DNA of 64,000 bases from Candidatus Omnitrophota bacterium (GTDB lineage: Bacteria > Omnitrophota > Gorgyraeia > Gygaellales > Profunditerraquicolaceae), in the NCBI GenBank assembly GCA_043813305.1, contig JBDRLC010000042.1:666-64665 (forward strand), read 5' to 3'. The notes under the pieces are model-generated. The model saw only the letters and a list, made by a program, of their open reading frames with translations, was not told the origin of the DNA and did no database searches. This document shows, in pieces, positions 6,476 to 7,614 of this stretch (positions are counted from its first letter, which is position 1; each line of letters opens with the position of its first letter). The translations under genes and the position numbers were made by a program.

Positions 6476-6706
6476 TTATCTTTTTTTTCTAAATTTTGCG
6501 GCTGCAAGTCCGGCTAAACCTATACCCAATAATGCTAAGGTAGTAGGTTCTGGATTGACAAGAGGTGCGCCTGATGCGCCTGTCGTTGTAGCACCATAGC
6601 TGGAAGAACTGGAAGAAAAACCAGAGACACTCGAGCCTCCCCCTCCGCTTCCGGAACAACCTGCAATTAAAATCATTCCCAATAAAATAAAAACGGCCTT
6701 ACGCAT
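6476..6706 (-). CDS. 76-aa lipoprotein/PEP-CTERM micro-protein
   Basis: ATG 6706 (TAATG coupling, AGGAG SD): MRKAVFILLGMILIAG-C17, Gly/Ser/Thr linker, NPEPTTLALLGIGLAGLAAAKFRKKR. Confidence 0.85.
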   Translation of the reverse strand: MRKAVFILLGMILIAGCSGSGGGGSSVSGFSSSSSSYGATTTGASGAPLVNPEPTTLALLGIGLAGLAAAKFRKKR

Positions 6707-7614
6707 TATCTTGCTCCTTTTCCTGTTAGAATGACGATAAAGGTTTGCGCGATTATTCTTAAGTCCACCCATAAACAAAGTTTTCTAATATAGAGCAGAT
6801 CGTATTTAATCTTCTTCTTCACATCCTGAATTGACTCATCGTATTTATGCCAGACCTGTGCCAGTCCGGTAATGCCGGGCTTAACTTTCAGGCGCTTCTC
6901 ATAATCTACAATCATCTTCTTCAAGTCCCTGACTAATTCAGGCCTCTCCGGACGCGGGCCGACAATACTCATCTCCCCTTTTAAGACATTGATTAACTGG
7001 GGTATTTCATCAACGTGGGTTTTTCTTAAGATCTTCCCGACACTAGTTACTCGAGGATCATTAGCCTTTGCCCAAACTGCACCGGTTTTATCTTCGGCAT
7101 CAACTCTCATTGTTCTGAATTTGTAGATTTTAAAGATTTCTCCGTACTTACCTAATCTATTCTGTAGATAAATCACCGGCCCCTTGGAGGTAAACTTTAT
7201 TAAGAGGGATGCCAGCATAATCAATGGGGCTGTCAGGATCAAACCGAATATTGCCAGAAGAATATCCATTAGGCGTTTAAGTCTCTGATAACTTTTTCTG
7301 ACGAAGGTAGCAATGAAACTAGCGATTCCACCCAAAAACAAGACGAAGGTACTTGGCTCCGGAGCGCGACCTGTCCTTTGGGAATTCAGATTCTCTGAGT
7401 TGACCTCCGTTTGAATAGGCTGTTGGGAAATTACCTGCTGGCTATAATCCGCAGAATTATCAAACAAAGTAAAGCCAAAGGTCAAAGCGTCTCTACAATA
7501 GGGCTCAATCATAACCACTGCCGCGAAAAGCACCAGCACTAAACATGCCCGCTTAATTAAAGTACCATTAAATGCTTTGCTAAACTCTTTGGTAAATGCT
7601 TCCTTTATTTTCAT
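6706..7614 (-). CDS. Priming phosphoglycosyltransferase (Bac_transf, WcaJ/PglC-like) with internal PEP-CTERM motif
   Basis: KRLMDI...KFRTM...DPRVT...DEIPQLINVLKGEMSIVGPRPERP catalytic core, preceded by APEPSTFVLFLGG...RK. Start moved to ATG 7614 because ATG 7641 lies inside the sigma54 site. Confidence 0.88.
   Translation of the reverse strand: MKIKEAFTKEFSKAFNGTLIKRACLVLVLFAAVVMIEPYCRDALTFGFTLFDNSADYSQQVISQQPIQTEVNSENLNSQRTGRAPEPSTFVLFLGGIASFIATFVRKSYQRLKRLMDILLAIFGLILTAPLIMLASLLIKFTSKGPVIYLQNRLGKYGEIFKIYKFRTMRVDAEDKTGAVWAKANDPRVTSVGKILRKTHVDEIPQLINVLKGEMSIVGPRPERPELVRDLKKMIVDYEKRLKVKPGITGLAQVWHKYDESIQDVKKKIKYDLLYIRKLCLWVDLRIIAQTFIVILTGKGAR

Follow-up and report, generated by a model that had tools for sequence, protein, structure and literature searches.

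A PEP-CTERM-like signal embedded ahead of the catalytic domain of a small phosphoglycosyltransferase in Candidatus Omnitrophota

The stretch of DNA considered here (64,000 nucleotides from a Candidatus Omnitrophota bacterium, GenBank assembly GCA_043813305.1, contig JBDRLC010000042.1, positions 666 to 64,665 of the forward strand; called the window below) carries on its minus strand the gene of a phosphoglycosyltransferase (PGT) in which a segment resembling the PEP-CTERM signal of exosortase substrates lies between an N-terminal helix and the catalytic domain. The features of this gene and of its neighbors are collected in Table 1, and residues are numbered throughout from the ATG at 7641. 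The majority of aligned homologues (90 of 97) begin at the position of M10 (window 7614), and the upstream ATG falls inside a sigma-54-type promoter-like element; for these two reasons, M10 is likely to be the true start. An earlier reading made from the letters alone (the sequence-only reading) had described a hydrophobic segment, a Q/S/N-rich spacer, a PEP-CTERM motif, and a KRxxD junction in this protein, each of which is borne out by the translation, with the motif lying exactly at 7273-7365.

The N-terminal part has the predicted form of a two-helix hairpin. AlphaFold2, run on the PGT with an alignment of 58 sequences, placed helices at residues 26-50, 96-116, and 118-151 and a low-confidence loop at residues 51-95, with a mean predicted local distance difference test score (pLDDT) of 75.8. 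By count on the translation, 15 of the 47 spacer residues are Q, S, or N, and the loop ranges from 12 to 53 residues across the family, in one subgroup of which helix 1 ends in an AWA-type signal-peptidase site. The hairpin runs directly into the re-entrant helix of the enzyme.

Residues 122-305 match PF02397 with 229 bits (cut-off 27) over model positions 1-178 of 179. Among solved structures, a 205-residue PglC chain (8e37_B) aligns over its residues 9-189 with residues 120-309 (E 5.1e-34), and WbaP (8t53_A) over its residues 324-527 with residues 114-310 (E 4.3e-33). P139 of the re-entrant helix and the catalytic pair of D211 and E212 are invariant in alignments of 58 and of 23 sequences, and all of them align to PglC. 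The best NCBIfam match of the PGT is TIGR03025 (EPS_sugtrans, 297.3 bits, cut-off 295.55), yet it covers only model positions 248-445 of 445 and leaves the N-terminal multi-helix and cytosolic domain of a full-length member unmatched, while TIGR03013 (EpsB_2) stays below its cut-off (254.2 vs 393.35 bits) and matches at model positions 252-443 only. The catalytic domain is common to the window PGT, the large PGTs of WbaP/WcaJ type, and TIGR03013 (the PGT of the XrtA/PEP-CTERM system, also associated with exosortase systems according to its family description), whereas the four-helix and cytosolic N-terminal domain of the large enzymes is lacking, only the C-terminal ~200 positions of the ~445-position models being matched at scores below cut-off (254 vs 393, 261 vs 411, and 194 vs 403).

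The likeness to PglC (8e37_B and 8g1n_A) comprises the KR..D start, the re-entrant helix with a conserved proline, and the D-E pair within a DE(I/L)PQL stretch. However, PglC starts at the re-entrant helix, whereas the window PGT adds ~111 N-terminal residues that form a hairpin whose second helix is PEP-CTERM-like. Since the alignment begins at residue 120 of the PGT and residue 9 of PglC, this N-terminal part is an add-on and not a replacement of the multi-transmembrane domain of WbaP-type enzymes. As far as these alignments tell, the catalytic unit is a complete small PglC-type enzyme that begins with K122-R123 and to which ~111 N-terminal residues are added. The sequence-only reading had compared the protein with WcaJ/WbaP-type enzymes, which normally have a multi-transmembrane domain at this place; its identification as a PGT stands, but the type has to be corrected to PglC with an added N-terminus. 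Only two PF02397 genes were found in the genome, which is 86% complete, and both are of the APEP type, which makes the PGT in the window the sole candidate found for priming the polysaccharide of the window operon. An embedded sorting signal is absent from all NCBIfam family descriptions returned for the PGT and for 23 family members.

The PEP motif is strongly conserved. In the best 120 homologues (250-360 residues long), those with an organism name all being Omnitrophota or Omnitrophica, A93 is kept in 119, P94 in 118, E95 in 120, and P96 in 105, and G105, K122, R123, and D126 are each present in 120 of 120. The junction RKSF..FKR..D is likewise conserved, and the spacer columns of the alignment have an entropy of ~3.4 bits. 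In addition, a full-length PGT profile was searched over 401 sampled genomes of the phylum, matches above 330 bits being considered as carriers. This gave 55 matches in 53 genomes, including that of the window, with scores of 332-479 bits that reach into the add-on, the next match having 306 bits. P-E was found at the start of helix 2 in all 53 carrier genomes, in the form of PEP in 51, PEF in one (G394), and PEV in another (G368), in agreement with the expectation of the sequence-only reading that PEP be conserved among orthologs with the same extension. Judged by this pattern of substitution, the motif is selectively maintained beyond chance. A second APEP-type copy at G396:C5:22676-23434 (266.5 bits) contains two in-frame TAA stops and is probably a pseudogene.

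The embedded segments also resemble canonical PEP-CTERM tails in detail, as seen when 23 of them were compared with 58 canonical tails from the same 20 operons. Leucine occupies position +7 in 100% of both sets, glycine position +11 in 98% of the canonical tails and 91% of the embedded segments, and glycine position +14 in 93% and 82%, respectively; S/T at +4 and the onset of basic residues at +18 to +22 are found in both alike. A canonical VPEP or IPEP prefix occurs in several embedded members (L073, L079, L084, L087, and L088). When the genome was scanned in six frames with TIGR02595 (cut-off 16), seven matches exceeded the cut-off, namely five canonical C-terminal tails and two embedded segments, the latter being the PGT stretch in the window (19.3 bits) and that of a PGT copy on contig C60 (19.4 bits). 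Among the 23 family members, which come from 21 genomes, PF07589 matches 17 at E<=0.01 (best 4.9e-6) and TIGR02595 matches 10.

A profile of the add-on alone (23 sequences, 102 positions) had 116 matches at E<=0.001 among 1.84 billion representative proteins. Sorting by regular expression gave 26 full or truncated PGTs of the family, 17 small stand-alone PEP-CTERM proteins of 48-177 residues (several of them covering almost all of the profile), 38 long proteins in which the match is to a C-terminal PEP-CTERM, and 34 unsorted proteins, most of which by eye are additional truncated PGTs of the family or PEP-CTERM proteins whose tails are slightly longer. When the same profile was used in a word-indexed search, 128 proteins were obtained, and the 120 listed are all 242-336 residues long with PF02397, many of them with a precomputed PF07589 match; a word-based search with PGT residues 1-130 alone had no match beyond the protein itself. 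Several PEP-CTERM-like stretches, some of them N-terminal or mid-chain, are present in a few of the long proteins matched by the add-on profile (P0227, with 2500 residues and nine stretches, P0295, and P0262), which may be mis-called or run-together genes or may contain further internal signals.

The occurrence of the PGT is linked to that of exosortases. The exosortase domain (TIGR04178) was detected in 126 of the 401 genomes, and it is present in 52 of the 53 PGT carriers compared to 74 of the 348 other genomes; in the family to which the window belongs (60 other genomes), the PGT occurs in 7 of 13 exosortase-positive and 0 of 47 exosortase-negative genomes, although all of these counts are descriptive and overstate the support because the compared genomes are kin and not independent. 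In the sole carrier without exosortase (G363, L019), EpsI lies beside the PGT and is followed by the end of the contig. Exosortase, EpsI, and PGT genes are located on one strand in 46 of 52 relatives and are followed by one to eight open reading frames (ORFs) ending in a PEP-CTERM tail. C183, R187, R228, and H249 are invariant in the exosortases beside these PGT genes (21 sequences). An association of the exosortase system with PF02397 genes is already noted in an earlier report (PMC1569441).

The window differs from its relatives in that exosortase and EpsI lie 16 kilobases upstream of the PGT, at the end of a Wzx/Wzy-type polysaccharide operon (Table 1). The nearest subtype of this exosortase is XrtA, with 160.5 bits and below the cut-off of 208. 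In agreement with the sequence-only reading, the PGT gene stands apart from the operon of exosortase and exopolysaccharide genes and comes first in a small PEP-CTERM operon. Three PEP-CTERM genes follow it, beginning with that of a mini-protein, the start codon of which overlaps with the stop codon of the PGT gene (TAATG). By eye, no motif common to the PGT passenger and the downstream PEP-CTERM proteins was seen. A complex prediction for the window exosortase with PGT residues 75-125 scored 0.15 against a mark of 0.32; it was made without controls and is counted neither for nor against an interaction.

Table 1. Features of the phosphoglycosyltransferase gene and related genes in the window.
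Feature	Position	Strand	Basis or remarks
PGT gene	6706..7614	minus	302 residues from M10; 311-residue ORF if read from ATG 7641 (6706..7641)
N-terminal hydrophobic helix, residues 32-45, after K/R-rich tail; signal anchor or signal peptide	7507..7548	minus	AlphaFold2, K+R density
Variable spacer ("passenger"), residues 46-92, Q/S/N-rich, predicted disordered, probably periplasmic	7366..7506	minus	pLDDT ~50, column entropy
Embedded PEP-CTERM-like signal APEPSTFVLFLGGIASFIATFVRKSYQRLKR, residues 93-123: APEP, membrane helix, basic cluster RKSYQRLKR	7273..7365	minus	models, alignment
Re-entrant membrane helix of monotopic PGT, residues 124-150, P139 conserved	7192..7272	minus	aligned to PglC N-terminal helix
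PF02397 catalytic domain, invariant D211-E212 pair	6727..7278	minus	Pfam match, alignments, PglC alignment
Sigma-54-type promoter-like element TGGCATGAAATATGCT (GG-N10-GC), 31 nucleotides before M10 ATG	7630..7645	minus	consensus scan
76-residue mini-protein: lipobox LIAGC, Gly/Ser-rich stretch, canonical PEP-CTERM	6476..6706	minus	TIGR02595 23.8 bits
Canonical PEP-CTERM protein, 221 residues	5785..6450	minus	TIGR02595 22.3 bits
Canonical PEP-CTERM protein, ~206 residues	4984..5604	minus	TIGR02595 24.9 bits
Histidine kinase (1824-3023) and sigma-54-dependent response regulator (413-1831)	413..3023	minus	downstream of PEP-CTERM genes
Exosortase, only one found in genome	23595..24428	minus	TIGR02602 154.2 bits vs cut-off 105.55
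EpsI-family exosortase-associated protein	22978..23637	minus	TIGR02914 80.8 bits vs cut-off 42.8
Wzy_C protein	28599-29909		window polysaccharide operon
Wzx-like flippase	46025-47527		window polysaccharide operon
Wzz/GNVR	60189-61496		window polysaccharide operon

The mini-protein encoded directly after the PGT belongs to a recurrent kind. Proteins of 76-117 residues with a lipobox, a Gly/Ser run, and a PEP-CTERM are encoded at 6476-6706 and 55509-55739 (both minus) and in L034, L044, L045, L048, and L051, so that a lipoprotein signal (for example LIAGC or LAGC) and an exosortase signal occur in one protein. The two window proteins have the same layout as the PGT add-on, that is, an export signal, a short low-complexity spacer, and a PEP-CTERM, but their chains stop behind the basic cluster and they contain a lipobox, which the first helix of the PGT lacks. 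A second kind of C-terminal domain is also present near the PEP-CTERM system: the gene at 9330-13643 (minus) encodes a 1437-residue repeat-rich protein with a C-terminal Gly run followed by CFI-box-CTERM (NF041770, 104.3 bits, cut-off 40). On contig C60 (G000, L032:233-9328), there is a second, divergent copy of the region, which contains a CFI-box giant protein, a GspC-like protein, a response regulator, an APEP-PGT 55% identical to that of the window, a TPR protein, and a sigma-54 regulator, and in which the PGT is not followed by PEP-CTERM genes. This copy may represent a paralogous region or derive from a second organism in the bin (contamination 6.5%).

A sigma-54-type element (consensus TGGCAY-N5-WTGCT) precedes the PGT in 22 of 23 loci (window, L032-L052) when at least 8 of 11 consensus positions were required within 450 base pairs upstream of the gene. 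Under the same conditions, it was found in 2 of 23 intragenic stretches of the same size and in 197 of 4600 shuffles; over the whole window, the consensus had 41 matches compared to 33.4 expected, which is not above chance. With this element, the leader ahead of M10 would be only ~5 nucleotides long in the window. The response regulator encoded downstream of the PEP-CTERM genes matches the PEP-CTERM-box model TIGR02915 with 414 bits, below the cut-off of 502.6, and its best match is of the AtoC/NtrC type.

With regard to topology, the density of K and R over 78 family sequences is 0.31 in the N-terminal tail, falls to 0.096 in the loop, and rises to 0.46 over the 12 residues that follow helix 2. 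The N-terminus and the active site of PglC are on the cytoplasmic face of the membrane. Because of this charge distribution and the alignment of the PGT to the start of PglC, PEP should lie on the outer side of the membrane and the basic cluster on the inner side, which is the orientation of a canonical PEP-CTERM tail; the sequence-only reading, which required PEP to be outside the cytoplasm, is supported in this respect. In this arrangement, the N-terminal tail would be cytoplasmic, helix 1 would run outward, the spacer would be periplasmic, and APEP would sit at the outer face, from which helix 2 would return to the cytoplasmic face. The basic cluster and the re-entrant helix would be located there, and the catalytic domain would be in the cytoplasm.

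Natural variants of the protein are known from other genomes and metagenomes. The 458-residue metagenomic protein P0269 consists of a signal peptide, a choice-of-anchor N domain (NF038141, 53.8 bits, cut-off 40), a PEP-CTERM (21.8 bits, cut-off 16), and then the PGT, the catalytic domain of which has a basic insertion in common with P0256. In the opposite direction of size, L050 and L052 have about a dozen residues between the signal and APEP, and P0307 and P0331 begin 7-13 residues before PEP. Elsewhere in the phylum, L063-L066 and L071 have a homologous but PEP-less two-helix hairpin with an SGG...FAR..Y..FKR stretch, and in L053-L058 and others the hairpin is replaced by a cytosolic helical N-terminus. 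In L053-L062 and L070 (for example in G080, G052, and G128), the operon is of the exosortase-EpsI-PGT-PEP-CTERM kind and the cytosolic N-terminal segment of the PGT has an RRYQK...GE.PWEE motif.

A tree of the catalytic domain was built from 43 sequences, comprising 41 PGT ORFs from 40 loci (L033-L072) and the two copies of the window genome. In this tree, 21 of the 23 APEP genes are in one group (support 97/95), which also includes L059, which lost PEP, and the pair from G123 groups with the PEP-less hairpins (91/90). The presence of PEP needs three changes on the tree, at least two of which are forced by supported branches. In view of these forced changes, the separate placement of the G123 pair, and the loss in L059, the tree does not support a single origin of PEP.

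Taken together, these features suggest that the protein is a fusion between a miniature exosortase substrate (export signal, short variable passenger, and PEP-CTERM) and a small monotopic PGT of PglC type. It has much in common with the canonical PEP-CTERM/exosortase (EpsH/XrtA) system, including PEP followed by a membrane helix and a basic cluster, an N-terminal export signal, the L+7/G+11/G+14 pattern, the co-occurrence with exosortase, and the sigma-54-type promoter element. Recognition of the segment by the exosortase is well supported by this comparative evidence, and cleavage of the PGT, which we infer from it, is less certain; considering recognition and probable cleavage jointly, we regard a genuine exosortase-recognition signal fused to the priming transferase as the probable explanation. 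The co-encoded exosortase, with EpsI, would then recognize helix 2 and PEP in the same way as the tails of the downstream PEP-CTERM proteins, and this recognition would physically couple the enzyme that commits the polyprenyl-phosphate carrier to polysaccharide with the protein-sorting machine. Most likely, the exosortase would also make a cut at or near PEP, removing the passenger and leaving the PGT anchored by helix 2. The sequence-only reading, which had proposed that an exosortase might cleave the enzyme, release an exported peptide, and leave or activate the transferase, is thus partly supported, namely as regards the signal, its link to an exosortase, and its orientation. A further, tentative idea, which we hold to be possible but doubtful, is that such an internal cut yields two products, a sorted periplasmic or surface passenger and a helix-anchored transferase kept at, or activated by, the exosortase, so that rounds of sorting are tied to the start of polysaccharide chains and the lipid-linked sugar made by the PGT could be the long-sought acceptor onto which exosortase transfers PEP-CTERM proteins.

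Several observations weigh against an exosortase signal that is recognized and cut, among them the kinship of the compared genomes noted above, the hmmscan scores of the window PGT under both PEP-CTERM cut-offs, and the PEP-less PGTs in exosortase operons of sister lineages. The signal is not at the C-terminus, although this position belongs to the definition of the domain: 188 PGT residues follow the basic cluster, and the same internal location is seen in all 53 carrier genomes. While canonical systems end there, the signal of this family is followed by a 190-residue enzyme, and the passenger ahead of it is very small in the majority of members. At position -1, A is found in 91% of the embedded segments but V/T/I in canonical tails, and position -2 is R/H instead of V/A/P. 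Between A of APEP and R of KR, the distance is 31 residues in each of the 23 aligned members (L077 and L085, two other members, have one residue more), and such a fixed distance points to a structural role within the enzyme for which no exosortase is required. The fixed spacing, the family-specific [R/H]-A prefix, the replacement of the second proline (P96) in 15 of 120 homologues with A-P-E retained, and passengers that are reduced to about 9-13 residues or are absent would all suit docking without cleavage, in which helix 2 and PEP act as a permanent pseudo-substrate or tether that is never cut and either holds the PGT on the exosortase or regulates the exosortase by competing with its true substrates; indeed, the tiny passengers of L050, L052, P0307, and P0331 fit docking better than the release of a useful peptide and indicate that in most members it is the engagement of helix 2, not the cargo, that matters. 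On the other hand, the exosortases retain their invariant Cys, Arg, and His, some members have the canonical VPEP or IPEP prefix, and the choice-of-anchor N domain of P0269, a domain kind named for preceding C-terminal sorting signals, would serve no evident purpose if it remained tethered to the inner membrane; its full size as a passenger argues that these segments really are sorting signals with cargo. We consider docking without cleavage to be unlikely, if not negligibly so.

The fixed spacing to the re-entrant helix would also be expected if a small PEP-CTERM gene had been fused to a small PGT gene and the hairpin had since been kept for membrane insertion or enzyme stability, with the exosortase inactive on the segment. 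Such a relic would agree with the scores of the window PGT itself in hmmscan, which are just under the cut-offs of both PEP-CTERM models (TIGR02595, 14.8 vs 16; PF07589, 16.2 vs 20.7), and with the PGTs of other lineages of the phylum (250-306 bits), which lie in exosortase operons without PEP, on a PEP-less hairpin or with no hairpin at all. These sister operons imply that PEP is dispensable for both enzyme and operon, and the tree placement of the G123 pair and L059 likewise implies that PEP was gained or lost more than once and that enzyme and operon can work without it. However, a relic should drift, whereas P-E is retained in every carrier genome over many families, L+7, G+11, and G+14 follow the local consensus, and the adjoining spacer varies freely; moreover, the exosortase-negative genomes of the window's family lack the PGT and nearly all carriers have an exosortase. 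On this balance, an inactive relic appears improbable. It is hardly conceivable that the fusion is an artefact in which an adjacent mini PEP-CTERM gene and a small PGT gene are read as one through a sequencing or assembly error: small stand-alone PEP-CTERM proteins of 75-177 residues do exist and are matched by the add-on profile over the full extent of the profile, and mini PEP-CTERM genes are present in the same operons, but the same uninterrupted frame is found in 53 genomes and hundreds of metagenomic proteins, with a conserved junction and no stop codon inside the profile match.

The architecture of PEP-CTERM followed by PGT is described by no NCBIfam or Pfam model returned here, and an internal PEP-CTERM in a sugar transferase has no description that we found in the literature searched, which consisted mainly of abstracts. 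It would also be, to our knowledge, the first sortase-like sorting signal to act from inside a chain and to have an active enzyme as its leaving group. In a recent paper (PMC12188702, 2025), exosortase processing is still called hypothetical and covalent linkage to polysaccharide is only suggested. Polysaccharide genes constantly accompany exosortases. In the family reported here, a sorting signal and the enzyme committing the carrier are placed on one polypeptide, conserved in one operon with exosortase, EpsI, and substrates, and, if the proposed cleavage is true, one product of the cleaved chain in some relatives would be a full choice-of-anchor domain. Such a compact three-gene system could show whether and where exosortase cleaves and whether protein sorting and the initiation of polysaccharide synthesis are mechanically coupled.

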